A DNA stretch of 64,000 nucleotides from an uncultured Acidimicrobiaceae bacterium (GTDB taxonomy: Bacteria; Actinomycetota; Acidimicrobiia; Acidimicrobiales; RAAP-2): assembly GCA_963700135.1 (NCBI GenBank), contig CAVOWM010000010.1:26775-90774 (forward strand), written 5' to 3'. Position 1 is the first letter of the stretch, and the number at the start of each line of letters is the position of its first letter. The notes below the pieces were generated by a model. The model was not told where the DNA came from and ran no database searches. It was given only the letters and a program-made list of their open reading frames with translations. Below are positions 13,946 through 64,000 of this stretch, piece by piece. The position numbers were made by a program, and so were the translations under genes.

Positions 13946-13971
13946 TCCTCGTCACCCTTGCGGGTGTCGAG

Positions 13972-15859: not shown

Positions 15860-15915
15860 GGTCTCCGCTCGGGCGCCCTTGACGAAGCGACGTCAGTGGC
15901 GCATGTGCGGGTGCG

Positions 15916-16305
15916 TCAGTCGTCGGACAGCACCAGACAGAACGGGTGGCCTACGGGATCGAGGAACACGCGGAACGTGGTGCCGGGTTGGTAGTCGTGC
16001 TTCGTCGCGCCGACCGCGAGGGCGTGCGCCTCGCCGTCATCCAGGTCGGGGACGAGGAAGTCCAGGTGGAGTTGCTGCGGCGTCGCGCCGGTCGGCCACG
16101 TCGGCGCCACGTAGTTGGGGACCCTCTGGAAGGCGATCGTCGGATGGGCACCGTTGTCGAGTTCGATCCACTCGACCTCATCGGGTTCGAAGTCGCCGAG
16201 GGGTTCGACCTCGAGACCGGTGAGTCGGGAGTAGAAGTTCGCGAGGGCGATTGGATCCGGGCAGTCCAATCCGACCAGTTGGTATCGAGGTCGCACGTCG
16301 GTCAT
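15916..16305 (-). CDS. VOC/glyoxalase-fold protein
   Basis: 129 aa with sequence like the glyoxalase-like domain family (VGLDCPDP...FYSRLTG...HLDF). Confidence 0.7.
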   Translation of the reverse strand: MTDVRPRYQLVGLDCPDPIALANFYSRLTGLEVEPLGDFEPDEVEWIELDNGAHPTIAFQRVPNYVAPTWPTGATPQQLHLDFLVPDLDDGEAHALAVGATKHDYQPGTTFRVFLDPVGHPFCLVLSDD

Positions 16306-16396
16306 CTGACACTCCTTGTTCGTGACTAGGTTCGAGTGACGCCGTGGTCACTCTATCGACGTCGATGCAACATCCGGTGTCCAGGGGGTGACGGGT

Positions 16397-17575
16397 TCAG
16401 CGAGGAGCGGTGAAGTTTCGGGTCGCCTCGGCGTACCAGGCGGCCGACGGCTTGGGGGTGCGTTCGAAGGTCGTGCGATCGACGGCGACGATGCCGAACT
16501 TCGGTCGGTAACCGAGCGTCCACTCGAAGTTGTCGAGCAGTGACCACTGGAAGTACCCGCGAACGTCGATGCCGTCGGCGATCGCGTTGGACAGTCCGGC
16601 GAGCGCGCCCGTGAGGTAGCGAATCCGCTGCTCGTCGTCGTCGGTGCCGATCCCGTTCTCGGTCACGATGATCGGGACGTCCACCATCGAGGCCGCGCGA
16701 CGGATCGTGTACTCGACACATTCGGGCCAGAAGAGATAGCCCATCTCGGTGAGTTCGCCTTCGGGGTGCACGATGAATCCGTCCGGACCGAAGACCCACT
16801 TCGTGTAGCACTGGACGCCGACGAAATCGTCGTCGCCCATCGAGCGCAGGTACTCGTCTTCCATCTCGTGTCGTAGCGACGAGGCCGCCTCCTCGCCACC
16901 GGGCAGCGCCTCGTACTCGTGCATCGAGATCGGCATGCCGATCGGATAGTGGCCCGGCGTCGCGCGCAGCGCGTCGCGCATCGCGACGTGACAGGCGCGC
17001 AACGTCGTGTTGACCTTGGAGAACCGGTCCCAATCACTTTGGGCCGGTGGGAACAGTCCCATGAGATAGCCCATCAGCGCGACGATGTTCGGTTCGTTCA
17101 CCGTGCACGCGACGCCGATCACGTCGCCGAGGGCCTCGCCGACGATCCGCGCGTAGTTCCCCATGAGTTGGACGATCTCCGGGCTCTCGAACCCGCCGAG
17201 GTCGGCGACCCACAGGGGCAACGTGAAGTGGTGCAGTGTGACGACCGGCACGATCGAGCGCGCGTGACACGCTTCGAGCATCTGGCGGTAGTGGCGAAGC
17301 GCGTCGGCGTCGATCGCGCCGCGCTGGGGTTCGATGCGGGCCCATTCGACCGAGAGTCGGTACGAGTTCAGTCCCAGTTCGACGATCAGGTCGAGGTCCT
17401 CTTCGTAGCGATTCCACGAGTCGCAGGCGTCACCGCACTCCTCGGCGCAGTGCGTGCCTTCGGCGCGCTCGTAACGCCACCAGTCGGTGTTGGAGCCGCC
17501 GCCTTCGGTCTGGTACCCCGACGTGGAGGTACCCCAGGCGAAGCGATCCGGAAAATGAACGTCACGTTGTGTCAT
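16397..17575 (-). CDS. GH1 beta-glucosidase
   Basis: FAWGTSTSGYQTEGG, acid/base TVNEPN and nucleophile VTENG motifs. Confidence 0.9.
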   Translation of the reverse strand: MTQRDVHFPDRFAWGTSTSGYQTEGGGSNTDWWRYERAEGTHCAEECGDACDSWNRYEEDLDLIVELGLNSYRLSVEWARIEPQRGAIDADALRHYRQMLEACHARSIVPVVTLHHFTLPLWVADLGGFESPEIVQLMGNYARIVGEALGDVIGVACTVNEPNIVALMGYLMGLFPPAQSDWDRFSKVNTTLRACHVAMRDALRATPGHYPIGMPISMHEYEALPGGEEAASSLRHEMEDEYLRSMGDDDFVGVQCYTKWVFGPDGFIVHPEGELTEMGYLFWPECVEYTIRRAASMVDVPIIVTENGIGTDDDEQRIRYLTGALAGLSNAIADGIDVRGYFQWSLLDNFEWTLGYRPKFGIVAVDRTTFERTPKPSAAWYAEATRNFTAPR

Positions 17576-17697: not shown

Positions 17698-19626
17698 ATG
17701 GAGCACTCGTCACCGGAGCGAAAACCAGCGAGCTCGTCGACCAGCGATTACCAACGCGCGGCCCGGGCGAGCATCGCGACGGCGTCGGCGAGCGACTTCG
17801 AACGAGCGACGCGTGGCATGATCGCGCCCGGTGCTCCGCGACAGGTGCCCGGTCGCTTCGGGCAGGTCCTCTGGGACCTCGACGCCTACGCGTTCTTGGA
17901 CGACCCGTCCACCATCGAGGCCCCGAGCACGGTCAACCCCAGCCTCTGGCGACAGGGTCGGCTGAACAACATCGCCGGACTGTTCGAAGTGACCCCGAGG
18001 ATCTTCCAGGTGCGCGGCATGGACATCTCGAACGTGACGTTCATCTCGGGCGAGACCGGTTGGATCGTCATCGATCCCCTCACGTCAGAAGAGACCGCCC
18101 GGGCCGCGCTGGCGATGGTGAACGAGCACCTCGGCGAACGACCGGTTCACGCCGTGATCTACACCCACAGTCACACCGACCACTTCGGTGGCGTTCGCGG
18201 CGTGCTGAGCGACGATGACCTCGACGGCGGTCGCGTCGCGATCATCGCGCCCGACGGTTTCTTGGACGCGGCGATCAGTGAGAACGTCCTGGCCGGCACG
18301 GTCATGATCCGCCGCGCCATGTACATGTACGGGGTGCTGCTGCCGAAAGACGCGCAGGGCCACGTCGACACCGGGCTCGGCAAGGGGATGCCCGGGTTGC
18401 CGAGCGTGTCACTCGTCGCGCCCACGCACGAGATCGTCGCCACCGGCGAGGAGATGACCATCGACGGCGTGCGACTCGTCTTTCAGGTCACGCCCGGCAC
18501 CGAGGCGCCGTCCGAGATGAACATCGTCCTACCCGACCAACGGGCCCTGTGCATGGCCGAGAACTGCACCGCGACGCAGCACAACGTCTACACGCTGCGC
18601 GGGGCGCAGATTCGCGACGCGTTGCAGTGGAGCAAGTACATCGACCAGTCCCTCGAGCTCTACGCCGAGGACTGCGACGTCCTGTTCGCCAGCCACCACT
18701 GGCCGAGGTGGGGCCGGGCCGAGCTGTCGGTGTACCTGGCGAGTCAGCGCGACGCCTATCGCTACCTGCACGACCAGACCCTCCGCCTGGCCAATCACGG
18801 GTGGACGATGGACGAGATCGCCGAAGAGATCACCCTGCCCGCGAGTCTCGGTGACGAGTTCTTCAATCGCGGCTACTACGGGACGCTCTCGCACAACGCC
18901 AAGGCCGTGTACCAGCGCTACCTCGGCTGGTTCGACGGGAATCCGGCGCACCTCAATCCCCATCCACCGGTCGAGGGGGCGCGGCGGTACGTGGCGTTCA
19001 TGGGCGGCGCGGACGTAGTGCTCGACCGGGCCCACGCCTCGTTCGCCGAGGGCGACTACCGATGGGTCGCCGAGGTCGTCAACCACGTCGTCTTCGCCGA
19101 TCCGGACAACGAGGCGGCGCGGCTCTTGCAGGCCGACGCGCTCGAGCAACTCGGCTACCAGAGCGAGTCCGGGCCGTGGCGCGACTTCTATCTGACGGGG
19201 GCCATGGAACTCCGCTCGAACGGGACCGTCCTCAAGGGACTACCCGGCAACGCCCTGGGATCGGGCATCGTCCGCTCGATGACACCCGAGCTGTTGCTCG
19301 ACCTCATCGGGGTACGTCTCAACGGCCCGAGCGCCGCGAACTTCGAGATCGAGGTCGAACTCGTCGTCGCCGACCGGGCCGACGAGCGGTGGAGTTTCGG
19401 CGCACGACACGGTGTGCTGCACGCGCGACGCGACGCGCGAGGCGCCGCCTCGGTCGGCGTCATCTGTTCGCTCGCCGCGTTCGCGGTCTTCGCCACCGGT
19501 TCCAAGAGCTTCGACGAACTGCTCGCGCGCGACGACTTCCAGGTGACCGGCGCCGTGGACGCGCTGCGCGAGTTCGCCGAGAAACTCGACGCGTTCGAGT
19601 TCGGTTTCGAGATCGTCCTCCCTTGA
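17698..19626 (+). CDS. MBL-fold alkyl/aryl-sulfatase (SdsA1/BDS1-like)
   Basis: YTHSHTDHFGG metallo-beta-lactamase motif, plus a long C-terminal dimerisation/SCP2-like extension. Confidence 0.85.
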   Translation: MEHSSPERKPASSSTSDYQRAARASIATASASDFERATRGMIAPGAPRQVPGRFGQVLWDLDAYAFLDDPSTIEAPSTVNPSLWRQGRLNNIAGLFEVTPRIFQVRGMDISNVTFISGETGWIVIDPLTSEETARAALAMVNEHLGERPVHAVIYTHSHTDHFGGVRGVLSDDDLDGGRVAIIAPDGFLDAAISENVLAGTVMIRRAMYMYGVLLPKDAQGHVDTGLGKGMPGLPSVSLVAPTHEIVATGEEMTIDGVRLVFQVTPGTEAPSEMNIVLPDQRALCMAENCTATQHNVYTLRGAQIRDALQWSKYIDQSLELYAEDCDVLFASHHWPRWGRAELSVYLASQRDAYRYLHDQTLRLANHGWTMDEIAEEITLPASLGDEFFNRGYYGTLSHNAKAVYQRYLGWFDGNPAHLNPHPPVEGARRYVAFMGGADVVLDRAHASFAEGDYRWVAEVVNHVVFADPDNEAARLLQADALEQLGYQSESGPWRDFYLTGAMELRSNGTVLKGLPGNALGSGIVRSMTPELLLDLIGVRLNGPSAANFEIEVELVVADRADERWSFGARHGVLHARRDARGAASVGVICSLAAFAVFATGSKSFDELLARDDFQVTGAVDALREFAEKLDAFEFGFEIVLP

Positions 19627-25409: not shown

Positions 25410-27008
25410 ATGTCTACAACTAAGTCAAGTCGCGTCATTCGAGCGGCGGCCGCGTCGGCCGTGTGCGTCGCACTCGCGTTCGGCACTGCAGGAGTAGCCC
25501 TCGCCGGACAGGGATCGCACGCACGCGATCATTCCAACATCTCTTCTCACGACAACGGTCAGTGGAGCGGCGCTCGCGGCACGATCAGTGCGCTGGGCAC
25601 CAGCTCGATCACCCTGAAGGACCGCAAGGGCAACACCACGACCTACACCACGACGAGCGCCACCACCTACTTCGAAGGCTCCACCGCCGGCGTCGTCGGT
25701 GACCTCGCGATCGGTGAGCAGGTCGACCTCGCGTTGACCCCGACCACGCCCCAGACGGTGACCAAGGTCACGATCGACCTCGCTCGAGTCTCGGGCACCG
25801 TCACCACCGTCGTCGGCAACGTGATCACGATCACCGGCTGGCACAACACGACGCTCACGGTGAACGTCTCGGGCACCACGACCTACACCTCGGGTGGCGC
25901 GGCCTCAACGCTCGCCGCCGTGGTGACCGGCGCACAGATCAGCGCCGTCGGCCTCCCCGGTTCGACCGCGGGCAGCCTCAACGCCATCTCGGTGAACATC
26001 TGGGCACCGCGCGTGTCGACGCACGCTCGCGGCACGATCAGTGCGCTGGGCACCAACTCGATCACCCTGAAGGACCGCAAGGGCAACACCACGACCTACA
26101 CCACGACGAGCGCCACCACCTACTTCGAAGGCTCCACCGCCGGCGTCGTCGGTGACCTCGCGATCGGTGAGCAGGTCGACCTCGCGTTGACCCCGACCAC
26201 GCCCCAGACGGTGACCAAGGTCACGATCGACCTCGCTCGAGTCTCGGGCACCGTCACCACCGTCGTCGGCAACGTGATCACGATCACCGGCTGGCACAAC
26301 ACGACGCTCACGGTGAACGTCTCGGGCACCACGACCTACACCTCGGGTGGCGCGGCCTCAACGCTCGCCGCCGTGGTGACCGGCGCACAGATCAGCGCCG
26401 TCGGCCTCCCCGGTTCGACCGCGGGCAGCCTCAACGCCATCTCGGTGAACATCTGGGCACCGCGCGTGTCGACGCACGCTCGCGGCACGATCAGTGCGCT
26501 GGGCACCAACTCGATCACCCTGAAGGACCGCAAGGGCAACACCACGACCTACACCACGACGAGCGCCACCACCTACTTCGAAGGCTCCACCGCCGGCGTC
26601 GTCGGTGACCTCGCGATCGGTGAGCAGGTCGACCTCGCGTTGACCCCGACCACGCCCCAGACGGTGACCAAGGTCACGATCGACCTCGCTCGAGTCTCGG
26701 GCACCGTCACCACCGTCGTCGGCAGCGTGATCACGATCACCGGCTGGCACAACACGACGCTCACGGTGAACGTCTCGGGCACCACGACCTACACCTCGGG
26801 TGGCGCGGCCTCAACGCTCGCCGCCGTGGTGACCGGCGCACAGATCAGCGCCGTCGGCCTCCCCGGTTCGACCGCGGGCAGCCTCAACGCCATCTCGGTG
26901 AACATCGGCGTCCCGTTCAATCACAGCGGCAACGGTGGTCACGGCCACTCCCACGGCCAGGGCTTCGACAGCGGCCACGCGAAGAGCTTCGGACACAGTC
27001 GTCGCTAG
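25410..27008 (+). CDS. secreted Thr-rich repeat protein (three 151-aa modules, DUF5666-like) with His-rich C-terminal tail
   Basis: Signal-peptide-like N-terminus (AAAASAVCVALAFGTAGVALA), three near-identical modules, and tail GNGGHGHSHGQGFDSGHAKSFGH. Confidence 0.85.
   Translation: MSTTKSSRVIRAAAASAVCVALAFGTAGVALAGQGSHARDHSNISSHDNGQWSGARGTISALGTSSITLKDRKGNTTTYTTTSATTYFEGSTAGVVGDLAIGEQVDLALTPTTPQTVTKVTIDLARVSGTVTTVVGNVITITGWHNTTLTVNVSGTTTYTSGGAASTLAAVVTGAQISAVGLPGSTAGSLNAISVNIWAPRVSTHARGTISALGTNSITLKDRKGNTTTYTTTSATTYFEGSTAGVVGDLAIGEQVDLALTPTTPQTVTKVTIDLARVSGTVTTVVGNVITITGWHNTTLTVNVSGTTTYTSGGAASTLAAVVTGAQISAVGLPGSTAGSLNAISVNIWAPRVSTHARGTISALGTNSITLKDRKGNTTTYTTTSATTYFEGSTAGVVGDLAIGEQVDLALTPTTPQTVTKVTIDLARVSGTVTTVVGSVITITGWHNTTLTVNVSGTTTYTSGGAASTLAAVVTGAQISAVGLPGSTAGSLNAISVNIGVPFNHSGNGGHGHSHGQGFDSGHAKSFGHSRR
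25572..26906 (+). repeat. tandem repeat, 453-bp unit, about 2.95 copies, near-perfect nucleotide identity
   Basis: Unit starts at 25572, 26025 and 26478. I see only two substitutions between copies (AGC/AAC). Confidence 0.95.
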
Positions 27009-52727: not shown

Positions 52728-55340
52728 CTAACGTCGCGCGAGCGCTGGCGCGTGGAGCTCGCGAAGCCAGGAGGCGACGTCGGCGCGCACGGCGGCGCCC
52801 GAAATGATGACGTCGACCATGATCATTGACGTGTGCGTCTGGCCCCGGCCCTCGACGTGGCGCGCCGACACACCCGCCGCCTCCAGCGCGCGCGCGTAGG
52901 CCACGCCTCCGTCGTGCAGGGGATCGAACTCCGCCGTGACGATCAACGCGGGCGGGAGCGCGTCGAGACGTCCCCGCAATGGCGCCGCGCGCGGATCGGC
53001 CCGTGACGCGGGGTCGACGTAGAGATCCGAGAACCACTGCATCACTGATCGCGTGAGCAGGTACCCCTCGGCGTTCTCGACGTACGAGGTTCGGTCGAAG
53101 TCGAAGTCGACGACGGGGCATAGCAACAGTTGACCGGCGATTGACACGTCGCCGACATCGCGCGCGTCTTGGCAGACGACCGCCGCGAGGTTGGCGCCGG
53201 CGCTCCAACCGGCGACGACGAGTTGACCCTCGATGCCCCCGAACTTGGCGATGTTCGACGCGGCCCAGCGCACTGCCGCGCACGCGTCGTCCACCGCCGC
53301 GGGGAACGGGTGCTCGGGCGCGTGCCGATAGTCGACGGACACGACGATGGCATCGGCGCGCACGCACAGGTCGCGACACAGCGGCGCGTCCGAGGTCGCG
53401 CTTCCGAGCACCCAGCCGCCACCGTGGAAGTACAGCACCACCGGGTGTGGACCCGCAGTCGCAGGACGGAGGAGCTGATAGGCGAGATCGCCGGCCGGGC
53501 TCGCGAAGACGCCGTTGACCACCTCGCCCACGTCAGGTCCCGGCGGCATGATCGAGGCACTGGCATCCCAGAGCGCCCGAGCGTCGCTCGGCGTCAAACT
53601 CTCCAGCGGTGGCAAGCCCATCGACGCCATGGTCTCGAGCATGATCGTCACGTCCAGTTGCAAGCGGCGGACTACCCCGTCGTTGCAGTGCTCGACGCCG
53701 TCTCCCGTCAATCGGAATCCCAGATAGTCCGACTCGACGACCTCGTCGCAGACCGCTCGGTAGCGATCGACCCCGGCGATGTAGGGGAGGAGCATCCGCG
53801 GTTTCCCGGGTACGTTCGCGCCCATGTACCACGAGTCCGCTTGAGGGAGCAAGGTGATCGCGCCGCAGTCGGCGACGTGTTGGTCCCATCCGGCTTGAGC
53901 CCGCGACGTCGGTTCGATCTCGGAGAACCCGTGGCGGTCGAGGAAGGTGACGCAGTCGACGATCCAGTCGACGTGCTGTTCGATGGACACCACCATGTTG
54001 GAGAGCACGGACGGGCTGCCGGGACCGGTGATCATGAAGAAGTTGGGGAAACCGACCGTCGTGAGACCGAGGTACGTCGACGGGCCGTCGGCCCATGTCT
54101 CTTTCAGGGTCGCCCCGTCTCGGCCCTCGACGTCCACGGCCACGATGGCGCCCGTCATCGCGTCGAAACCCGTGGCGTAGACGATGGCGTCGACGTCGAA
54201 TGACCGTTTCGACGTCGCGAGACCGTCCGCGGTGATCCGCTCGATTGGTTCTCTTCGCAGGTCGACGAGTTCGACGTTCGCCTGGTTGAAGGTCTCGTAG
54301 TAGTTGGTGTCCAAGCACGGGCGCTTCGTCCCGAAGGGATAGTCCCTGGGGCAGAGCGCCTCGGCGATCTCGGGATCGTTCACCTTCTCGCGGATCTTCT
54401 CGCGGATCATGTCGGCCACGATGGCGTTGGACGCGAGGTTCGTGCTCTGGTCGGCGAAGACGCTGAGGATCTCGAAGAGCTCACCTTTCTCCCACGCCGA
54501 CTCGAACCTGGCTCGAGCGACGTCCTCGCTCGCCGTGACTCCGGTCACGTCATTGGGTGGCATCGGCACACCCCCTCGCGACCAGCGCGCGGACTCGCGG
54601 TACGCGGCGCGGTCGCGCGCGAGTTCGGCCAATCGATGGGCGGGCGGCGGTCCGTTGTGCGCGGGAACCGAGAAGTTCGGGGTTCGCTGGAACACCGTCG
54701 TGTGAGCCGCTTGGGCGGCGATGATGGGAATTGACTGGATGGCGGACGAGCCGGTGCCGATGACGGCGACCCGCTTGCCCGTGAAGTCCACGCCGTCGTG
54801 GGGCCACGTGCTGGTGAAGTACACGTCGCCCGCGAAGTCGTCGGCACCCACGATCTCCGGTGCCTTCGGCATCGAAAGACACCCACTCGCCATCACGAAG
54901 AATCGACAGACGATCTCGTCATCGTGATCCGTCCGGACACGCCAGCGGCGTGTCGGCTCGTCCCACGTCGCGGCCTCGACCCGCGTCGAGAATTCGATGT
55001 CGCGTCGGAGGTCGTAGCGAGCGGCGACGAACTGCAGGTACCGCAGTATCTCAGGCTGCGTGGCGTACTTCTCGGACCAGGTCCACTCCTCGTCGAGGAC
55101 AGGATCGAAACTGAATGAGTAATCCGTGGTCGGCACGTCACATCGCGCGCCGGGGTAGCGATTCCAGTACCACGTACCGCCCACGTCATCGGCCACGTCA
55201 AACGCCAGGGCCGACAGTCCCGCCTCGCGACATCGGTGGAGCAGGTACAGACCCGCAAAGCCCGCTCCCACGATCGCGACGTCGACGTCACGCGCCCTTT
55301 TATCTCGAGTCGTCACGTCGCCCCACCTTCCAGTTCTCAT
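52728..55340 (-). CDS. fusion protein: type I Baeyer-Villiger (flavin) monooxygenase N-terminal ~545 aa plus HSL-family alpha/beta esterase C-terminal ~310 aa
   Basis: GAGFAG, DVGGTWYWNRYPG, FAGDVYFTSTWP, GTGSSA and ATGFD motifs, followed by HGGGW and GWSAG. One uninterrupted 870-aa frame. Confidence 0.85.
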   Translation of the reverse strand: MRTGRWGDVTTRDKRARDVDVAIVGAGFAGLYLLHRCREAGLSALAFDVADDVGGTWYWNRYPGARCDVPTTDYSFSFDPVLDEEWTWSEKYATQPEILRYLQFVAARYDLRRDIEFSTRVEAATWDEPTRRWRVRTDHDDEIVCRFFVMASGCLSMPKAPEIVGADDFAGDVYFTSTWPHDGVDFTGKRVAVIGTGSSAIQSIPIIAAQAAHTTVFQRTPNFSVPAHNGPPPAHRLAELARDRAAYRESARWSRGGVPMPPNDVTGVTASEDVARARFESAWEKGELFEILSVFADQSTNLASNAIVADMIREKIREKVNDPEIAEALCPRDYPFGTKRPCLDTNYYETFNQANVELVDLRREPIERITADGLATSKRSFDVDAIVYATGFDAMTGAIVAVDVEGRDGATLKETWADGPSTYLGLTTVGFPNFFMITGPGSPSVLSNMVVSIEQHVDWIVDCVTFLDRHGFSEIEPTSRAQAGWDQHVADCGAITLLPQADSWYMGANVPGKPRMLLPYIAGVDRYRAVCDEVVESDYLGFRLTGDGVEHCNDGVVRRLQLDVTIMLETMASMGLPPLESLTPSDARALWDASASIMPPGPDVGEVVNGVFASPAGDLAYQLLRPATAGPHPVVLYFHGGGWVLGSATSDAPLCRDLCVRADAIVVSVDYRHAPEHPFPAAVDDACAAVRWAASNIAKFGGIEGQLVVAGWSAGANLAAVVCQDARDVGDVSIAGQLLLCPVVDFDFDRTSYVENAEGYLLTRSVMQWFSDLYVDPASRADPRAAPLRGRLDALPPALIVTAEFDPLHDGGVAYARALEAAGVSARHVEGRGQTHTSMIMVDVIISGAAVRADVASWLRELHAPALARR

Positions 55341-55373
55341 CGAGCATCAGTCGGCGAAGCCTTGCCGTCGGCG

Positions 55374-55940
55374 TCATGTTCCGCGAAACAGTTCGACGAA
55401 TCGCTCGGCGGTTTCGGAGGGAGGAAGTTCAGCATCGGCCTCGCCCGATTGACTCACAATCCTCTCGAGATTGTCGAGACTGGTAATCATCGCCGGTCGC
55501 CAGAACTCACCGTCTTCGATGAACTTTCGGAGTTCCTCGGGCAATCGGGAGCCTTCGAAGAAGGTAGTGACGCGGGTTCTGTCGTCACTCAATGGTTCCA
55601 ACTGCCATCCCCACTCGCGAAGTCCAGGATGGCCGACCGATTGCTCGTAGTCGGGGTTCGCGTAGGAGAACACCACCGGCTCCCACGAGATCAGACGGTC
55701 CTGTTCGAACTCGCGCACGTGATTTGCCATTACGTAGTTCCCAAGGTGCCAGTGAACCATCTCGATGTTGAACACGTCGCCCACTTTGGAGACGCGACGG
55801 TTGTCGACGGCGGAACGCAACATTCCCGTTCCGTCGACTTGCGGGTGCATTGCGGGATCGGACAGGACCGAGAAGATTCGCGCCGCGGGAGCGTCGATGT
55901 CGCGGCTCTCTGAGACCGATGGCTGGATCATGGCCCACAC
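55374..55940 (-). CDS. SRPBCC/polyketide-cyclase-like protein
   Basis: SRDIDAPAARIFSVLSDPAMHPQVDG N-terminus. Lies 33 nt upstream of the BVMO-esterase gene on the same strand. Confidence 0.7.
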   Translation of the reverse strand: MWAMIQPSVSESRDIDAPAARIFSVLSDPAMHPQVDGTGMLRSAVDNRRVSKVGDVFNIEMVHWHLGNYVMANHVREFEQDRLISWEPVVFSYANPDYEQSVGHPGLREWGWQLEPLSDDRTRVTTFFEGSRLPEELRKFIEDGEFWRPAMITSLDNLERIVSQSGEADAELPPSETAERFVELFRGT

Positions 55941-56127
55941 TCCTTGCGATGATGATGATTTTGAACGAAAGTATCACCGGATTCGAAGGCGATCGTCCTG
56001 AGGCGACGCGGTCGACGGTCGGTGCCATCGACCGATTGGACGGAGATGGTCCTCACATTTGGGATTGAGGACCATCTCGTGTCGTCCAGCCCAACCATTC
56101 ACTCGCCGTGAGTGTCAGGCAAGGTCG

Positions 56128-56862
56128 TCAAAGACCGCGCCGACGCCGAAGGGCGAGAGCGAGGCCCGCGAGTCCGACGAACAGCACCATGGCCGCCCCG
56201 GTCAGGACGACACCATTGTCAGTTGAAATTGCCGATCCACCGGCACCGGCCGCCGGGGCACCCGAAGGTACGGTGGCGGGCGCCACGGTCGGCGGCGAGA
56301 CGATCACCGTCGTGTTGGTCGCTGGCGGGATCGACGTGGTCGTGGTACTCGTCGACGTCGAGGTGACGGACACCGTCGAGGTGGTCGTCGATGACCTATT
56401 GGGCGGCGGAGGAGGCGGCGATGTCGTCGTAGTTCCTTCTGTCGTCGTGGTGCGCGGTACGGTCGTGGACGTCGTCGAGGTAGTCGTGGTCGACGTCGTC
56501 GAGGTGCTGGTCGTGGTGCGCGGCACGGTCGTCGTCGTCGGTCGCACCGTCGTTGTCGTCGTCGGTGCCGTCGTCGTCGTCGTTGTCGTGTGATACGTGG
56601 TCGTCGTCTGGCAGCGACCCGTGAGCGTCGTGCCGCCACCGTGGTTCGTCGACGCATTCGACGCCAGCGCCGGCAGCGCGACGAGACTCAAGGTCACCAC
56701 CGTCACCACTACCAAGGCTGAGCGGAATCCCTTGATCAGCGCGGTGATTCTCGTACGCCACAACCCGACAAACTCGCGCAAGGTAACTGCTCGATCGTCA
56801 CTGCAAATAATGCGGACATTCGTTGCCATGATTGTGAATCCAATCCGCCCTTGCACAGTCAA
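56128..56862 (-). CDS. secreted Thr/Pro-rich protein with C-terminal hydrophobic anchor and Arg tail
   Basis: Signal-like N-terminus (VVVTVVTLSLVALPALA), poly-Thr core, PPPPPP, and C-terminal VVLTGAAMVLFVGLAGLALALRRRRGL. Confidence 0.65.
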   Translation of the reverse strand: MTVQGRIGFTIMATNVRIICSDDRAVTLREFVGLWRTRITALIKGFRSALVVVTVVTLSLVALPALASNASTNHGGGTTLTGRCQTTTTYHTTTTTTTAPTTTTTVRPTTTTVPRTTTSTSTTSTTTTSTTSTTVPRTTTTEGTTTTSPPPPPPNRSSTTTSTVSVTSTSTSTTTTSIPPATNTTVIVSPPTVAPATVPSGAPAAGAGGSAISTDNGVVLTGAAMVLFVGLAGLALALRRRRGL

Positions 56863-56993
56863 TCTAAGCGGGAGTTGTGCTGTTTGTGTCGCGTAGTTGA
56901 CACGGGATTGTGACGAGCGGTCGGGTCTGGGGAAGGGACTCTCTGGCGTACGTCAGTGAGTTGATTGCCACTCGCCAATGGCGAGGGACGGGG

Positions 56994-57623
56994 CTAGCGA
57001 CGCGGCTCGCCGGAGAGCCGACTCGTGACGGCTGCTCGGGCGCGGCCGATCACCGCCACGTCATCGTGAAGAACACTGACGATGTTCGTTCCGGCCAGGA
57101 TCACACCGAGTTCAAAGGCGAGTTGCTGTGGATCCGTTCCAACGGACAGCTCACCGCGATCGGCGGCCGTGTTCGCTTCACGTCCGAGCAAGTCTCGCCA
57201 CTGCTGTTGCACTCGAGCGACCTCGTCATGGACGCGTCCGGGGCGACCGCCAACCTCGGCGGACGCGGAGACGAAGAAGCACCCGCCCGGGAAGACGCGT
57301 CGCTCGACGTAGGAGAGATAGCCCTCGCAGAGGGCGAGCAGGCGCTGGCGCCCGGGCTCGGTCGTATTGAACGCCGGGGCGACGACCTCGATGAGGAAGC
57401 TGTCGCGCGCCGCGTTGATGGTCGCCAGTTGGAGTTCTTCCTTGGAGCCGAAGAGCGCGTAGACACTGCTTTTAGCGATGCCGGTCGCCTCAGCCAGCCG
57501 TCCGATCGAGATCCCTTCGATGCCTTCGATAGTGGCCAGCTGCGCTGCCTGTTCCACGACGCGGGCGCGGGCGCGCTCTCCCGGGGCCCGAGTCTGCTTC
57601 TTCGGGGTCTCCTCATCGGCCAT
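56994..57623 (-). CDS. TetR/AcrR family transcriptional regulator
   Basis: HTH IEGISIGRLAEATGIAKSSVYALF. Confidence 0.9.
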   Translation of the reverse strand: MADEETPKKQTRAPGERARARVVEQAAQLATIEGIEGISIGRLAEATGIAKSSVYALFGSKEELQLATINAARDSFLIEVVAPAFNTTEPGRQRLLALCEGYLSYVERRVFPGGCFFVSASAEVGGRPGRVHDEVARVQQQWRDLLGREANTAADRGELSVGTDPQQLAFELGVILAGTNIVSVLHDDVAVIGRARAAVTSRLSGEPRR

Positions 57624-57711
57624 CGGGACTCCTCACTTGACCAGCGCACTTGCATCTTAGACGGACGAGCGTTTAGAGTATCTTGTACGGTCGTACGTTT
57701 AAGGGGGTCAG

Positions 57712-58500
57712 ATGTCGACGAACACGGTGGACTGGCAAGAGGCCGGGCGAGGTTGGGGAGCGAGAGCAACTGAATGGGCCTACCTGTGGGAGCCGTACGC
57801 ACTTCCGGCGAACGAAGTGCTCTTCGATCGACTGGGAGTCGATGAGGGTATTCGTCTCTTGGACATCGCGTGCGGCTCCGGCTTCGCCGCCGCGGTGGCC
57901 GCGCGCCGCGGCGCGGAGGTCTCGGGGATCGACGCGTCAGAACAACTCACCGCGATCGCGGCAGCGCGCACACCGAGCGGGAGCTTTCGAGCTGGCAACA
58001 TGTTCGCGCTGCCCTACCCCGATGACAGTTTCGATCTCGCCACCAGTTTCAATGGGATCTGGAAGGGGTGCGAGGGTGCACTCGATGAGGCGAAGCGTGT
58101 ACTGGTCCCCGAGGGCCGTCTGGGTCTCACCTTTTGGGGCCGGTACGAACGGGTGGGACTCATGCCCTACTTCCTCAAAGTCATCGAGCTGTCGCCATCG
58201 AGCCACGCCAGTGCAACCATGGAACACGGCAGAACGCAGAATGTGATCGAGGACATGCTCACTGCAGCGGGACTTGAAGTCCTCGAGCGCGGGACCGTGA
58301 ACGTCGTCAACGAATGGCCCGATACGTCGACCGCCGTTCGCGCGTTGGCGTCAGCCGGGCCGTCGGTTCCGGCAATCGAATCGGTCGGCTACAACGCCTT
58401 CTGCGAAGCGCTCCGAGAGGTTGTCTCGCCACTCTGCGATCGAGATATCGGCGTCCGAATCACGTCGGAGTTCGCCTGGATCACCGCAAAGGCTCTTTGA
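57712..58500 (+). CDS. class I SAM-dependent methyltransferase
   Basis: Motif I LLDIACGSGF. Divergent from the TetR gene. Confidence 0.85.
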   Translation: MSTNTVDWQEAGRGWGARATEWAYLWEPYALPANEVLFDRLGVDEGIRLLDIACGSGFAAAVAARRGAEVSGIDASEQLTAIAAARTPSGSFRAGNMFALPYPDDSFDLATSFNGIWKGCEGALDEAKRVLVPEGRLGLTFWGRYERVGLMPYFLKVIELSPSSHASATMEHGRTQNVIEDMLTAAGLEVLERGTVNVVNEWPDTSTAVRALASAGPSVPAIESVGYNAFCEALREVVSPLCDRDIGVRITSEFAWITAKAL

Positions 58501-58564
58501 CGCCTCCAGACCAGTCACTCCGACGGGGATCGGGCGAAAGCGCTGTGCCGCCCATGGTCGAACC

Positions 58565-58642
58565 ATGGAAACGTGGAACTTTCGCTTCGCCGACGTTGTG
58601 GGCTCGACGGCAATGATTCCCGAGTCGCCCCATGGGGCATGA
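58565..58642 (+). pseudogene. possible 5' stub of a class III nucleotidyl cyclase gene
   Basis: METWNFRFADVVGSTAM resembles the F(T/A)D(I/V)VGST start of cyclase catalytic domains. The frame stops after 25 codons, where G+C drops. Confidence 0.25.
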
Positions 58643-58690
58643 TTCACTCGCCAGAGGAATAGAACTTGAGTACAAAGCATCTTTACGTGA

Positions 58691-59623
58691 TCAATCGAAC
58701 CTTTGACCCTGATCCTGCTGGATCAGTATCGGCAGTAGGGACGTCTTGAACTTCCCTCTCCCTTCGATCTGGAGTGGTACTTCAATTGCCCACGACCCGG
58801 GTGGAATTGCGTAGCCAAGGCTCCTCACGGATGAGGCCGTTCCAACAAGTAGTGGAATTGACACCGTACCGTCAGGTGGAATCCGGTACTTAATCAACGG
58901 CAGAGCCTGGGCACCAACGTATCCGCCGACCCCTCTATTCGTTTGAGGATCAACGACGCGTGCAGTGACCCCACCGTTCGTTTCGATGACCGCCTCAGCG
59001 CTCCCCCGGTTTTGAATTCGAAGCACGCCCCTTGCCGTTGCACCGGATGAAATGACAATGTCGCCTTCGAGGCTGACCTCGAACTCTTCACTGGGCAGCA
59101 GCGGCAACTGAGGACGTGCGCCAACCGCCGACCCCTTCTCCCGACGATCAACGTCAAGCACGGGCGGGTATGGAAACACTCCGACGCGGAGTTCGACGGC
59201 ATCTCCATGACGCCTATGAAAGGTCGCCGCTAGTCCTTCCTGATCCGCAGCAAGTTGGACGTTTACCCGTCCGTGGCCTATTCCCCATTGCATGAAAGCT
59301 TCTGGACGGTTCTTCGCCGTCGCTTTCAGTTCTCGCCGAATCTCTTCGAGTTGGGACTTTGGGAATGGCGTCCGTCGAACCTCGAGCTGATCGGGATGCT
59401 GCACAAGTTCACGAAGGGCCACCTCGTGCTCAGTGAGGCGGTCGCCCATCATCAAGACGATGAGGCGAATGTGGGGTTCGTTCTCGAAGAGTTCCTCGAC
59501 AAAATCGTCGGGGTGAAGCTCTCCATAACGGCGCACTGCCTCCACGTCAGAGCGGAACTTCCAGTGTTCGCGTTCAAGATCGGGATTGGGAGGCTGGGCC
59601 ATGAGTCCATTGTGCACTCTCAA
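58691..59623 (-). CDS. hypothetical protein (no signal peptide; beta-rich C-terminal half)
   Basis: 310-aa ORF. Alternative ATG at 59602 (MAQPPN). No family recognised. Confidence 0.55.
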   Translation of the reverse strand: MRVHNGLMAQPPNPDLEREHWKFRSDVEAVRRYGELHPDDFVEELFENEPHIRLIVLMMGDRLTEHEVALRELVQHPDQLEVRRTPFPKSQLEEIRRELKATAKNRPEAFMQWGIGHGRVNVQLAADQEGLAATFHRRHGDAVELRVGVFPYPPVLDVDRREKGSAVGARPQLPLLPSEEFEVSLEGDIVISSGATARGVLRIQNRGSAEAVIETNGGVTARVVDPQTNRGVGGYVGAQALPLIKYRIPPDGTVSIPLLVGTASSVRSLGYAIPPGSWAIEVPLQIEGRGKFKTSLLPILIQQDQGQRFD

Positions 59624-59670
59624 GAAGTTGCAGGGGATTGGTTCTCAGGATCCTGCATAGCGATGATTCT

Positions 59671-59698
59671 GGGCATACTGCGGGCATATAACGGGCAT
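59671..59698 (+). promoter_or_regulatory. GGGCAT direct repeats x3 with 11-bp phase (array A)
   Basis: GGGCAT at 59671, 59682 and 59693. The 18-mer GGGCATACTGCGGGCATA is identical to 61305-61322. Confidence 0.6.
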
Positions 59699-59726
59699 GA
59701 AGCAGGGGTAAAGGGCGGATGTTCGC

Positions 59727-59752
59727 GGTCACTGGTGGTCAGTCGTGGTCAC
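59727..59752 (+). promoter_or_regulatory. GGTCA(C/G) direct repeats x3 with 10-bp phase
   Basis: GGTCAC at 59727, GGTCAG at 59737, GGTCAC at 59747. Confidence 0.4.
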
Positions 59753-59857
59753 ACAAAAACACCTGTGAAGCGTGGGAAAAAAGTATCAACAGCTCAGCAA
59801 CATCAGTTAGTCGCGCTCACCGGGCTGCAAGAGGCTTGTCATGTTCGCACCAGATTG

Positions 59858-60409
59858 TTAGCGCGACAACCCGGTGTCGCGTTTTTTTGCTTTCTCCTCA
59901 GGAAACATTTCTTGGAGCAAAAATTGTACCCTCGGCAATATCTGACGTTCCGGATAGTAAGACTCCAAAAGATCCAAACCCTGCGTGGCCGTCGTGAGAC
60001 CACAGAGCTTGTATAGCTCGCGAATGTCGTCCTGATCTCGTTCGACGCGCGACGCCATCAACTTCATCGCCAGGAGGTACTGGGGTGACGCCGCAGCGAC
60101 GCTGAGATGCTGCCCTTCATAGACGCCGATACGATCCTTGTCTTCACCAGGCAAGAACGCCTTCGCACCGTCGTTGAGCCAGTCGGGTTCCAGATTCAAT
60201 TTCTCAGCGACTCGTGATGCAGCCGTTCTTACTTCGCTCGAGGGCACGAACACGGCGTCGACGTCGGAAGTCGCTCTGCGAGTGTCGTAGGCGATCGCCA
60301 TCGCGGCGCCTCCGACGATGAACACCTCACCTCGAACATTGAGAATGCCTAATTCTTGGTCAAGCTCCTCGAGGGCATTGAGCAATTCTCGACGACCGAG
60401 AAGCGCCAC
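59858..60409 (-). CDS. pol-beta-fold nucleotidyltransferase (AbiEii/MenT/DUF6036-like)
   Basis: VGGAAMAIAYDTRRATSDVDAVF fits hG[GS]-x(9-14)-DhD. GTG at 60409 shares one nt with the upstream stop (TAGTG). Confidence 0.6.
   Translation of the reverse strand: MALLGRRELLNALEELDQELGILNVRGEVFIVGGAAMAIAYDTRRATSDVDAVFVPSSEVRTAASRVAEKLNLEPDWLNDGAKAFLPGEDKDRIGVYEGQHLSVAAASPQYLLAMKLMASRVERDQDDIRELYKLCGLTTATQGLDLLESYYPERQILPRVQFLLQEMFPEEKAKKRDTGLSR
59862..59888 (+). terminator. intrinsic terminator on the plus strand with no annotated plus-strand gene upstream
   Basis: 7-bp stem CGCGACA/TGTCGCG, 6-nt loop, then T7. Lies inside the 3' end of the minus-strand NTase gene. Confidence 0.5.
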
Positions 60410-60846
60410 TACGCGTACTCCAATGCGCCCTGCGTTACAAAGACACCGCGACGAGCGAGGGAGATTGGGCTGTGCACAAGCGCGTTGGCGTGCAGCGACG
60501 CCAACCCTGATACGAACCACCATTTACTCAGAAAGTAGCGCTCTGCATTTACCCAAGATGGGGCGACTGCGCCATGCGAAGCACAGGCATACTCGACGAT
60601 CCCTGCCAAGAGGGCGTCGTATCGATCGCTACCCGTAGTCAGTGGCGGCTCAACTGTGATGCGCGCCCGAGTTTCCCAATCAGATTTGTCATATCGCTCC
60701 AAGAAGCGAAACGCAAGTCGAGTGGCCGAATTGAGATCTCCTTTGGCAAGACACGCGGCGATTTCTTCGCCCAAGTCGTTCACGGAGTCTTCATTCCACG
60801 GCATTCCAATATCGTAGGACCCCGAACCGACAACGGCGGATGTCAA
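60409..60846 (-). CDS. hypothetical partner protein of the NTase (candidate antitoxin/regulator)
   Basis: 145-aa ORF translationally coupled to the NTase. Alternative ATG at 60804. No family recognised. Confidence 0.5.
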   Translation of the reverse strand: MTSAVVGSGSYDIGMPWNEDSVNDLGEEIAACLAKGDLNSATRLAFRFLERYDKSDWETRARITVEPPLTTGSDRYDALLAGIVEYACASHGAVAPSWVNAERYFLSKWWFVSGLASLHANALVHSPISLARRGVFVTQGALEYA

Positions 60847-61064
60847 AGTGCCATACAGGCGAGTGGATTCTGAATGCTAGGGACGTTCACTCAGCTTGGC
60901 TAAAACAACTGGTACCCCCGACGGTGCGTGACCGCAATAGATAGCGGACAGGAATGTGTCGAGACATAGTTGACACTCCGGGGATCGGTGGTGGCTCGGA
61001 TGCAGCCAGAATTGAGTAGCGATAACTGTATGGCGGCTTGCTACGTCCATTTCCAGGTGATTTT

Positions 61065-61092
61065 GGGCATTGAACGGGCATGACCCGGGCAT
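61065..61092 (+). promoter_or_regulatory. GGGCAT direct repeats x3 with 11-bp phase (array B)
   Basis: GGGCAT at 61065, 61076 and 61087. Confidence 0.6.
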
Positions 61093-61177
61093 TGATGGCG
61101 CTCATTTTGTGAAAATATGGCACTTTCGATGCAGATACTCGCTAGGCGAAAATACCTTTTCACCAGGAATTACGAAG

Positions 61178-61223
61178 CACCCCCAACGGGATTCGAACCC
61201 GTGCCGCCACCTTGAAAGGGTGG
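61178..61223 (-). other. 3' fragment of a tRNA-Glu(UUC) gene (anticodon arm to discriminator): att-core-like
   Basis: Minus strand: CCACC-CTTTCAA-GGTGG, CGGC, ACGGG-TTCGAAT-CCCGT, TGGGGGT-G. No complementary ACCCCCA acceptor strand or D arm upstream. Confidence 0.7.
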
Positions 61224-61304
61224 CTAGATTCCGATTTGTCTAGTTGCGAAACTACTGATCAACACCAATATTCATTCAGGGAGACTCCTGTTTAGAAGGG
61301 GTTC

Positions 61305-61321
61305 GGGCATACTGCGGGCAT
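61305..61321 (+). promoter_or_regulatory. GGGCAT direct repeats x2 with 11-bp phase (array C)
   Basis: GGGCAT at 61305 and 61316, immediately upstream of the sigma-factor ORF. Confidence 0.55.
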
Positions 61322-61389
61322 AAGTGGCAACCGCCTCTCACCGTACGGAGACACTGACTAACAAGCTCGTTCGTGTAACGCTGACTCCG

Positions 61390-62004
61390 ATGCGGACATT
61401 TCCTGTAGTGGGAACGCCAATAGAAGAGTCTGCGGCTTGGGCTGCATCACTTAAGAATGACGGAAACGCCTTCGCCGTCGTCTTCGATCTGCATCGAGAC
61501 CGTGTCTATCACCACGCCCTACGAATGACGACGAATGTCCACGACGCGGAAGACGTCGTAGCAGCAGCATTCTTCGAACTGTGGCGCCTTCGGAACTCCG
61601 TTCGGGTGGTCGATGGATCGGTGTTGCCCTGGCTTCTCGTTACCGCAACCAATCTCTCGCGAAATTTGACTCGCGGTATCCGTCGTTATCGAGCACTCAT
61701 CGCGTCATTGCCTCGAACTACAGAAGCGCGGAGCTCGGAGGAATCCGCGTTGGAAAATATCGAGGAGTTGCGACTCGCTGTAAACCTGCGAGTCGCAATG
61801 AGCACAATGTCCTCTGACGATGTCGCTCTCATCATGCTCACCACGTTTGAGCATTACTCGCCAACGCAAATTGGTACCGCGCTTGGAATATCTAACGGCG
61901 CGTCACGAACGCGCCTTCACCGTGCCCGGGCCCGCTTGGCGGTTGCGCTCGAATCCATGGAACAAGTTGGAGGCGGCTTCATGACGAAGGAGAAGAGTCG
62001 ATGA
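61390..62004 (+). CDS. ECF-type RNA polymerase sigma factor
   Basis: Region 2 (DAEDVVAAAFFELWR) and region 4 HTH (YSPTQIGTALGISNGASRTRLHRAR). The ORF is open from GTG 61324. Confidence 0.8.
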   Translation: MRTFPVVGTPIEESAAWAASLKNDGNAFAVVFDLHRDRVYHHALRMTTNVHDAEDVVAAAFFELWRLRNSVRVVDGSVLPWLLVTATNLSRNLTRGIRRYRALIASLPRTTEARSSEESALENIEELRLAVNLRVAMSTMSSDDVALIMLTTFEHYSPTQIGTALGISNGASRTRLHRARARLAVALESMEQVGGGFMTKEKSR

Positions 62005-62816
62005 GCACCATCGAGATGGATCCGGTTTTCACTGCATCACTTCGCGAAGCGCTGATTACAAACGTCTTATCGGCTCCTCGGACGAAGCGTCGATGGCATT
62101 GGCGAATCGGTGCCGGGATGATCGTGAGCCTGACGCTCGCTGCGGGAGGGGTGGCGATCGCTACCGGTCTGTTCACTCAACCCGGAACATCTGTCGACAC
62201 CCAACTCGGAAGCGTTGTGATAGCAACTCGAACGGGAACAGCGACGATCGAAATGGGCACGCCGCCCGCAGGCACGACCGATGTTTCACTCAAGCTGACA
62301 TGCCTCACGGTAGGCACGTTCGACTTTCCAAACGGTTCCAGAATGACCTGTAGCGCGGTCGATCTAAGCAAGCCATCAGCTGAGCGTACGACGAGCGAAG
62401 TAGAGCCGATAAGTCCCGGCGTTGACGCGTTGACGATCGTGACGAGTTCGAAAGCAACATGGACGTTGCAAGCAACCTACGTGAATCAGGTCTCGACCGC
62501 TTGGGGCATCAACGCGAACGGCCAAACTTTCGGAGTACCAAATCAGAATGGCACCCCGGATCTCGTCGCCGTCTTCGCCGATAATCCGAAGATTCAGGGC
62601 TACGTTAAGGAGAGCGATTTGAACTGCGCTGCAGGTGGTGACATCTCATCTCCGGCGGAAGCTGCTGTGTGGGACAAAGTGAGTCAGAATCGTAATGTCT
62701 CCATCGCTGTTTACCAAAGCGATGGCGAGACGGTCGTTGGTACCTTCACTGTTGGTAGTGCCACTGGACCGAATGCCGAAACGGTCCCGCTCTCGTCGCT
62801 GTCGTTGGGCTGCTAA
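62001..62816 (+). CDS. single-pass membrane protein, candidate anti-sigma factor
   Basis: ATGA overlap with the sigma gene. One TM helix (IGAGMIVSLTLAAGGVAIATGLF) and an extracytoplasmic ~200-aa domain. No HxxxCxxC motif. Confidence 0.55.
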   Translation: MSTIEMDPVFTASLREALITNVLSAPRTKRRWHWRIGAGMIVSLTLAAGGVAIATGLFTQPGTSVDTQLGSVVIATRTGTATIEMGTPPAGTTDVSLKLTCLTVGTFDFPNGSRMTCSAVDLSKPSAERTTSEVEPISPGVDALTIVTSSKATWTLQATYVNQVSTAWGINANGQTFGVPNQNGTPDLVAVFADNPKIQGYVKESDLNCAAGGDISSPAEAAVWDKVSQNRNVSIAVYQSDGETVVGTFTVGSATGPNAETVPLSSLSLGC

Positions 62817-62960
62817 TCAAATGCAACAGCATCCCTCCACTAGATCGAAAGACTGAGTGCGGTTAGTAGTCGTGGGCCCGGCTTAGCGGAAATGCCACCT
62901 TGCATTGGCGGCTGACGTTACGAGTGGTCGTACAAACTGCTGGAAGTCGGCATATTCGAA

Positions 62961-63608
62961 GTGGAACCGAGACGCTCTGATAAGACTGTGCCAATGAGTG
63001 ACACCAGTGAGTCGGCTTGGAAACCAGGCACCAATGGCCAGTATCTGCTTGCTCAGTTCGGTCATCGAAGCCAACGGCGGCTCACGCTTTCGATGATGCT
63101 CGAAGCCAGTGACCTACCAGAAGTGGGTTGGTCCCAATACGACCAAAAGTGTTGGCGAACCGGAAAGATGTCGGCAACGAACTCGCGGCATATTCGGGCA
63201 CGGGAAGTCGGCACCTATACCGGATTGCGCACCTATTGGCATCCGGCGACTCAGAGGGTTATCGCGGCGAAAGTCGCGCCTATGGCGTCTGTTATCGATG
63301 CAGAAGCCGAAGTGCCCGGTTGGGGCCTGCATCTTATGAAGCGGCCAGACAGAGAGGGCACAGTGTCAGAAGAGATTCAGATTGACAATCTCGAAGTGCC
63401 GGACTTACCCAACGCACTGCTTACAAAGAGTGTCATTTCCGGACCGTCCGGAACATCAACCATGAGGAATGTTCGCGGGAACATCGATCGGGTTATCTTC
63501 GCTCTAGGGTGCAGTGCGTTGGACGGAGGTTTAGATTGGCAAGAAGTATTTAGGGTTGTGCAAATTCAAGTAATGAAGATTGAGAGGACTCTCCAAACGA
63601 GTGTCTGA
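62961..63608 (+). CDS. hypothetical protein
   Basis: 215-aa ORF in the low-GC island. Alternative ATG at 62994. No family recognised. Confidence 0.4.
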   Translation: MEPRRSDKTVPMSDTSESAWKPGTNGQYLLAQFGHRSQRRLTLSMMLEASDLPEVGWSQYDQKCWRTGKMSATNSRHIRAREVGTYTGLRTYWHPATQRVIAAKVAPMASVIDAEAEVPGWGLHLMKRPDREGTVSEEIQIDNLEVPDLPNALLTKSVISGPSGTSTMRNVRGNIDRVIFALGCSALDGGLDWQEVFRVVQIQVMKIERTLQTSV

Positions 63609-64000
63609 AATTGAGATTCAATTTGATTGTGGAATCTATCCGGATCGCTTGAATTTTTGGTGCTCCGCCATCAATCGTCGACTTGAATGAGGTTGACCTA
63701 TAGCGAACCAGCAGAACCGTGAATGTTGGTGGCGGCACCTTTGGTCATGGTGGGCATTGTCGTCTCCGCCATGGGATCAATTATCTAATTCATTCGAGGC
63801 TGAAGTCACTGCTGAAATGATGACCTTGTGCGCCATTGGCTCGATAACCCTTCATGAGCGTTCACAATGATCCGTTTGCTCATCAGATTTACGGCGTGAT
63901 GAACTTTTCGGCAACGCATGAAGGTGCTCAGCAGGCAAAATGGTGCAGTGGCTTCACTCTCCCAGAATCAACATTTCGCTATGTATGAGCGCTACCTCGT

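Follow-up and report, generated by a model that had tools for sequence, protein, structure and literature searches.

A tRNA-Glu fragment between helically phased GGGCAT repeats: the probable far attachment junction of an integrase-carrying island in an uncultured Acidimicrobiaceae bacterium

Results

Features of the locus

The window, i.e., the whole 64,000-nucleotide stretch of DNA analysed, changes in composition towards its right-hand end: from roughly 58.5 kb to the window end the GC content drops from ~0.65 to ~0.55. Three arrays of the hexamer GGGCAT are found in this tract, all on the + strand and all with an 11-bp spacing between the units. Array A (59671-59698) has three units (59671, 59682 and 59693), array B (61065-61102) has three units (61065, 61076 and 61087) followed in phase by a GGCGCT at 61097, and array C (61305-61321) has two units (61305 and 61316). 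Between arrays B and C a displaced 3′ fragment of a tRNA-Glu(UUC) gene lies on the minus strand (61176-61223), and serves as the core of the putative attachment (att) site; array B ends 83 nt before it and array C starts 81 nt after it. Exact GGGCAT-N5-GGGCAT pairs number five in the window versus 0.02 expected, with all five within 59.67-61.32 kb and none elsewhere in the window outside arrays A, B and C. The exact 18-mer GGGCATACTGCGGGCATA is common to arrays A (at 59671) and C (at 61305). The first-pass annotation of this DNA had described arrays B and C, their common orientation, their 11-bp spacing and their position ~80-85 nt to each side of the core, and all of this was confirmed; its inventory was incomplete, in that array A was overlooked and a fourth array (D, four units) lies just beyond the window.

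Direct reading of the sequence revealed a second repeat set next to array A, GGTCAC/GGTCAG/GGTCAC with a 10-bp spacing (59727-59752, + strand). Three minus-strand genes are interspersed with arrays A and B: 58691-59602, which codes for a 303-aa protein of no assigned function; 59858-60409, which codes for a DUF6036/AbiEii-like nucleotidyltransferase (Pfam); and its partner ORF 60409-60846, also of no assigned function. To the right of array C, on the + strand, are the genes for an ECF sigma factor (61390-62004) and, overlapping it, for a membrane protein, putatively an anti-sigma factor (62001-62816), both assigned from Pfam, NCBIfam and the gene call. In another part of the window (25571-26906), a 453-nt unit is repeated 2.9 times with 99% identity; it is unrelated to the att site and is probably a repeated 151-aa domain inside a gene.

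To reach the ground beyond the window, the gene at 62001-62816 was looked up, and six assemblies carry it; the locus coordinates used below equal the window coordinates minus 52000. All 48 nt of the fragment are identical to part of an intact tRNA-Glu(UUC) gene of the same chromosome (locus 18267-18314, window-equivalent 70267-70314). The intact gene occupies locus 18268-18341 on the minus strand, with a tRNA-Pro gene next to it; the fragment has the same orientation and lies 9,091 bp downstream in the sense of the tRNA. On the minus strand the fragment contains the anticodon stem-loop (CUUUCAA, anticodon UUC), the variable loop, the T arm and the 3′ acceptor strand, so that the core spans from the anticodon stem to 1-2 nt beyond the tRNA 3′ end, and the identity breaks off exactly at the 5′ side of the anticodon stem. 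The first-pass annotation had recognised these tRNA parts at 61178-61223, taken them for a fragment and proposed a search for a second copy of the core; the exact repeat is slightly longer than it had read, and the second copy is the one within the intact gene.

ARAGORN called a 72-nt tRNA-Glu at 61179-61250, and a sensitive scan with the Rfam tRNA model gave 28.9 bits, 0.1 below the gathering score of 29, so that an unusual but functional tRNA-Glu gene, to which the arrays would be unrelated, has to be weighed. The covariance model does not support a complete tRNA: nothing was reported at the gathering threshold, the D arm is not proper and two acceptor pairs are non-canonical, whereas the intact tRNA-Glu copy scores 61.9 bits and the tRNA-Asp and tRNA-Phe genes at ~13.9 kb of the window score 64-65 bits. 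Furthermore, the segment that ARAGORN took for the 5′ half (61224-61250, minus strand) does not resemble the 5′ half of the intact gene and varies among related elements; it is element-derived DNA, not tRNA-derived. The low Rfam score, the broken acceptor pairs and the stop of identity at the anticodon stem identify the sequence as a displaced fragment rather than a gene, and we regard a functional tRNA at this position as extremely unlikely. As a separate observation, the tRNA-Asp and tRNA-Phe genes (13870-14046, minus strand) have no tRNA-Glu gene upstream, the tRNA-Glu gene being the one paired with tRNA-Pro beyond the window.

The island E1

The two core copies delimit an island of 9,091 bp (core to core), termed E1, whose left 2.8 kb (61176-64000) are in the window, whereas its integrase gene, array D and the intact tRNA-Glu are beyond it. 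The tyrosine integrase gene is located between the two core copies at locus 15495-16763 (window-equivalent 67.5-68.8 kb), ~3.5 kb past the window end. Its product matches PF00589, PF22022 and PF14659 (Pfam), and phrog_1 at 2e-60 (PHROGs). It was called as a protein of 422 aa, but the true start is probably M61, because the homologues are 362-375 aa long and align from that point; the protein would then have 362 aa. Array D (locus 18131-18169) lies at the near end of E1 beside the intact tRNA-Glu, and array C, the core-distal (P′-type) arm, is present in every E1 copy, including those that have no left array (L002/L007). When rebuilt from the two ends, the attP of E1 reads: array D (4 units), 97 nt, the 48-nt core, 81 nt and array C (2 units). 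We conclude that E1 is an integrase-carrying, presumably mobile island inserted in the 3′ half of the tRNA-Glu(UUC) gene. E1 brings a copy of the last 48 nt of the tRNA, by which the gene is regenerated at the near end beside array D, and the original 3′ piece has stayed behind at 61176-61223, at the far end of E1.

Besides the sigma/anti-sigma pair, E1 codes for proteins of 204, 190, 182, 598 and 416 aa, for which no confident Pfam, PHROG or NCBIfam match was obtained; their sole matches were weak tail-fibre similarities in the 182-aa protein. Genes for replication, transfer or virion functions were not recognisable in the E1 cargo. The first-pass annotation had proposed that a recombinase and its xis be sought just beyond 64 kb. 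The recombinase is there, but no excisionase was found in E1, either by tblastn with the HTH_17 proteins of its relatives or by inspection of all E1 ORFs of at least 40 aa. More distant relatives have an HTH_17 excisionase gene directly upstream of int. E1 may have lost the ability to excise. Neither an empty site nor a circular form of E1 was recovered: the search for an empty site via the flanking methyltransferase gene gave only a rearranged variant (L143, described below), and contig L006 breaks at the repeat.

In nearly all relatives the gene of the 416-aa protein (L001 16780-18030, minus strand) separates int from the type I arm and is conserved with 46-69% identity. The protein has a signal-peptide-like N terminus and, by our own reading of the sequence, Asp-box-like motifs, with no family match. 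The 303-aa and 416-aa genes occupy the same slot beside type I arms and were considered as homologues, but on comparison they are not homologous.

Two decayed units to the left of E1

The low-GC tract extends to the left of the core, and the comparison with related genomes allowed us to split it into two units. The first, E2 (59770-61175), was delimited by Pfam and by comparison with other genomes. It is integrase-less, contains the nucleotidyltransferase gene and its partner ORF, and has array B as its arm; it is also found in L012 (98% identical) and is absent from L002/L007. The second, E3 (58602-59769), consists of the 303-aa gene and an arm with array A, and is truncated ~30 nt before the expected position of its core. 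The segment 59671-59769 (array A and ~70 nt) is 83-84% identical to arm D beside the intact tRNA. The 303-aa gene beside array A has, as its immediate left neighbour in L001 and L003, a piece of an integrase C terminus (residues 282-417, 82% identical), so that the order integrase, minus-strand gene, array reproduces that of E1; the homology between the window and L001 begins at 58602. The similarity of array A to arm D and the integrase fragment beside it in L001/L003 indicate that the low-GC tract left of the tRNA fragment holds two decayed related units.

In L002/L007 (OY970319.1, a complete-chromosome MAG of an uncultured Acidimicrobiaceae bacterium), E1 and array C are present, but homology to the window starts only at 61162. 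Leftward there is unrelated AT-rich DNA, and no GGGCAT array was found left of E1, i.e., arrays A and B are absent. The presence of E1 without array B reveals that arrays B and C belong to different elements. No second core, with up to 3 mismatches allowed, was detected in the window, so that the distal cores of E2 and E3 are gone. These comparisons show that E2 and E3 are the decayed remains of two earlier related insertions, that the segment 61065-61321 is a hybrid made of the arm of decayed E2, the core and the arm of E1, and that its attP look derives from the insertion of related elements in tandem. This agrees with the proposal of the first-pass annotation that an att core with arm-type repeats could look like attP through tandem or decaying elements, and departs from its suggestion of an intact attP-like junction, since the left arm is that of E2 and the right arm that of E1. 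The arm type of E2 differs from that of E1 (see below); hence the junction is a working attP of neither element.

Two further observations concern the variability of this region. In L143 (11330-11800, window-equivalent 61040-61500) the match to the window takes in E3, E2, array B and just 8 nt of the core, ending at 61183; beyond it, unrelated AT-rich DNA begins that codes for a Vgb_lyase/NHL/fn3 protein and a PIN_4 protein; no core or tRNA was found within 5.3 kb after the breakpoint. L143 is a further rearranged state of the same hotspot. At the other side, the 3-6 kb between a conserved FMO-carboxylesterase gene and the island complex (window region 55001-58602) differ among assemblies, with TetR and methyltransferase genes in the window, MFS and TetR_C_11 genes in L001/L003, and SnoaL and hydrolase-cyclase genes in L002. 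The variable region may thus reach left of 58.6 kb.

Arm types and spacing in related loci

Relatives of the E1 integrase (68-89% identical) were found in other Acidimicrobiaceae MAGs with the same layout. In L010, L011, L012 and L029 there is an internal core with arrays on both sides. Three successive cores are present in L014 and in L015, separated by integrase-less units of 1.9-2.6 kb; the units at L015 5230-7150 and L014 12916-15526 keep both att sites.

Two types of left arm can be distinguished. Type I (arrays D and A) has GGGCAT three to five times, then three to four GGTCAC-like repeats at 10-bp spacing, a hairpin and the core. Type II (array B) has GGGCAT two to three times with an in-phase GGCGCY, in a different backbone; such arms are also present in L010, L012, L014, L015 and L029, in L014 beside the intact tRNA. 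The GGTCAC repeats are a feature of all type I left arms, and of those only; type II arms lack them. In L069 and L097 the type I arm module (GGGCAT four times and three GGTCAC-like repeats) is joined to a tRNA-Gly(CCC) instead of a tRNA-Glu, and in these arms, too, the GGTCAC repeats are kept, which suggests that arms and cores may be exchanged as modules.

The gaps between array and core were measured across the window and 14 related loci, the left gaps to a 47-nt core string. Each of the six type II arms had a left gap of 84 nt, and 11 of the 15 type I arms had one of 97-98 nt; the right gap, from the core to the first GGGCAT, was 80-82 nt in nine of 12 fragment junctions. The outliers were off by roughly one repeat unit, with the end unit degenerated. 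The GGGCAT motif is conserved, and the surrounding arm sequence diverges. An anchored comparison of the arms also revealed the block ACTGATCAAC (61254-61263, + strand), ~30 nt from the core, which is kept in the right-hand arms of most related elements.

A regulatory role of the arrays, which the first-pass annotation had offered as an alternative, was considered against these distances. The start codon of the sigma factor comes 69 nt after the end of array C, a minus-strand gene is preceded by each of arrays A, B and D, and an 11-bp spacing of direct repeats is typical of winged-helix regulators, all of which would fit operators or promoter elements for an OmpR/SARP-type regulator or for the island ECF sigma factor, with an incidental proximity to the tRNA fragment. 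However, the distance from array to core is constant within 1-2 nt, while that from array to gene start ranges from ~70 to 220 nt. In E1, L011, L012 and L029 the sigma/anti-sigma pair comes after the right array, but L010 and L015 keep that array and lack the pair, and the short integrase-less units hold both arrays around unrelated cargo. Moreover, no sigma-70-like promoter was found in 60850-61450, and no OmpR/SARP-type regulator is encoded in E1. The constant distance to the core, the varying neighbour genes and the joining of the same arm to a tRNA-Gly indicate that the arrays track the recombination core and not any gene; we consider an operator function very unlikely.

In the related integrase loci, each array adjoins a core, is the equivalent of array A, or sits where a contig ends. 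When three phased GGGCAT units were sought across all metagenomes, at least 120 loci were obtained, of which 94 were unrelated plain 11-mer tandem repeats, 6 had a core and 20 were too short. With 94 unrelated loci, the bare GGGCAT pattern is not diagnostic outside this lineage; the pattern together with its fixed distance to a tRNA-derived core is. The expectation that such arrays are not commonplace thus holds within the window and the related integrase loci, and does not extend to the bare pattern across the metagenomes.

Two other features recur in or beside the arms. Immediately past the 3′ end of tRNA-Glu, type I arms share a hairpin that is conserved, CCAAAACCCTT-N6-AAGGGTTTTGG (L001 18200-18266), and partially retained in the array-A arm of the window (59753-59769). 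Only 2 compensatory pairs were seen in 10 sequences; the hairpin may be an element-supplied terminator for the tRNA-Pro/tRNA-Glu operon. Genes for nucleotidyltransferase toxins (DUF6036 or AbiEii) recur beside the arms (window 59858-60846, L014 14209-15200 and L019 9168-9713) and are found in integrase-less short units too, where such cargo could stabilise decayed units.

The integrase as candidate reader of the repeats

Integrases that recognise core as well as arm sites are found in phage lambda, mycobacteriophage L5 and elements of actinomycetes. To examine the domains of the E1 integrase we used the AlphaFold model of a homologue (P0001, 90% identical; mean pLDDT 85). Ahead of the core-binding and catalytic domains, the model has an N-terminal domain with strands at residues 7-11, 17-23 and 26-33 and a helix at 36-51. 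Full-length lambda Int chains aligned to the model over 346-373 columns, and lambda Int 75-356, which lacks the arm-binding domain, over 286-313 columns, in alignments that are not domain-resolved. In its extra N-terminal strand-strand-strand-helix domain, as predicted by the model, and in its alignment at full length the integrase resembles lambda Int. PF26003 was found at the N terminus of all full-length homologues and is absent from N-terminally truncated forms of 291-317 aa. In a sequence and profile search against solved structures, the core-binding and catalytic domains had matches and the N-terminal domain had none. The model points to a separate N-terminal domain of the arm-binding type in this integrase.

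If the protein acts as lambda-type integrases do, this N-terminal domain would bind the helically phased GGGCAT repeats and the tRNA-derived core would be the target of the catalytic and core-binding domains, whereas the GGTCAC repeats of the type I left arms would be bound by an accessory or directionality factor. The presence of GGGCAT on both arms and of GGTCAC in type I left arms only is what would be expected if the former were integrase sites and the latter accessory-factor sites. In addition, among the E1 proteins the integrase alone has a homologue in the element of L039, which is more distant and has GGGCAT arms.

Comparison of N-terminal domains among relatives gave a less simple picture. 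In close GGGCAT elements the N domain is 93-100% identical and the other domains 79-82%, which favours the integrase as reader; in L039, which also has GGGCAT arms, the N domain is just 60% identical to that of E1. The elements of L017 (1478-1505), L019 (8990-9017) and L021 (7354-7381) have integrases that are 63-67% identical and each a phased triple repeat of another motif: CGCCCAC in L017, GGCGCTA in L019 and CTGTGC in L021. In L017 and L021 the triple repeat is ~90-100 nt from a tRNA gene or a tRNA 3′ fragment, in L017 a tRNA-Leu with a 33-nt repeat; in L019 the arm backbone around it is array-D-like, and neither a tRNA nor a core follows. The hosts of all these elements are uncultured. 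The N domains of the integrases with CGCCCAC, GGCGCTA or CTGTGC arrays are 66-74% identical to that of E1. Since this exceeds the 60% of L039, overall similarity of the N domain does not predict the motif; this, the N-terminal domain's lack of a match among solved structures and the missing excisionase gene of E1 weigh against the integrase as reader.

A different reader of the repeats has to be weighed on this point. The att junction could be correctly assigned and the protein on GGGCAT nonetheless be a directionality factor, some other protein of the element or a DNA-bending protein of the host, with the integrase sites elsewhere, e.g., at GGTCAC. Phased direct repeats are typical of excisionase-type factors too, N-domain identity does not follow the motif, and similarly diverged integrases are found with different motifs, so that the motif could track the host or an accessory protein. 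Such a reader would have to accommodate that it is GGGCAT that flanks the core on both sides, with GGTCAC in type I left arms only, that neither an excisionase nor another common small protein was found in E1, and that L039 shares the integrase alone. We hold it to be unlikely, though less so than an operator function. From the arm sequences, the structure model and the likeness to lambda-type systems, we infer that the GGGCAT repeats are arm-type sites read by the integrase. It is likely that the locus is the far att junction of E1 in tRNA-Glu and that its GGGCAT repeats are arm-type sites bound by the integrase.

Discussion

The arrangement reported here has clear counterparts among known integrative elements. 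In the Islander signature, a regenerated tRNA gene is found at one end of the island and a displaced 3′ fragment at the other (PMC4383910). In E1 likewise, a tyrosine integrase gene is enclosed by the intact tRNA-Glu and a 3′ fragment that is oriented the same way, and the fragment starts at the anticodon stem, which is consistent with the anticodon-centred class of attachment sites (PMC4383910). Tandem arrays at one tRNA gene have been catalogued among Islander islands as well (PMC4383910). Unlike those cases, the host here belongs to an uncultured Acidimicrobiaceae lineage, and E1 is small (9.1 kb), with cargo in which replication, transfer or virion genes could not be recognised. Among the related genomes, the neighbours E2 and E3 are polymorphic, being present in the window and absent from L002/L007.

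The design of the proposed attP is, by analogy, lambda-like: the core lies between short direct repeats that are one helical turn apart and at fixed distances on both sides. It differs in the GGGCAT motif, in having 2 units in one arm and 2-5 in the other, and in their single orientation, all of which are specific to this family. It differs also in that no excisionase was found in E1, the candidate accessory sites being the three GGTCAC repeats of the type I left arms.

Tandem accretion and cis-mobilizable elements (CIMEs) are described for streptococcal ICEs and IMEs (PMC5704250, citing Pavlovic 2004 and Bellanger 2011). As in that account, a new element would have entered the att site of a decaying relative, giving rise to internal arm-to-arm junctions, and integrase-less units with both att sites exist in the relatives L014 and L015. 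The window holds arms of three units. Its E2 and E3, whose distal cores are gone, are remnants and not complete CIMEs, and unlike in ICEs and IMEs, conjugation machinery is not evident here and mobilisation is putative.

A broader reading is that the tRNA-Glu site of these Acidimicrobiaceae is a platform that accumulates cassettes, in which short integrase-less units are moved in trans and the arm module was swapped from tRNA-Glu to tRNA-Gly. We advance it as a speculation with a small chance of being right. If it were true, the cargo of such a unit, flanked by complete att sites, would be a nucleotidyltransferase toxin of the AbiE/DUF6036 type, and the integrases acting on the unit would be those of small E1-like islands, in which transfer, replication and virion genes are not recognisable; the arm module would consist of the GGGCAT repeats, the GGTCAC repeats and the hairpin, and a swap of the core would retarget the elements.

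The locus is a clear but ordinary case of a known process, and it does not reveal a new mechanism. What it provides, for a mobile-element family of the Acidimicrobiaceae, an uncultured lineage with almost no described mobile genetics, is an integrase together with att sites and putative arm-type repeats that are mapped with precision. The near-invariant spacing, together with one arm module on two tRNA cores, represents a natural data set on the retargeting of integrases, and the locus could be a starting point for integration vectors for the Acidimicrobiaceae.
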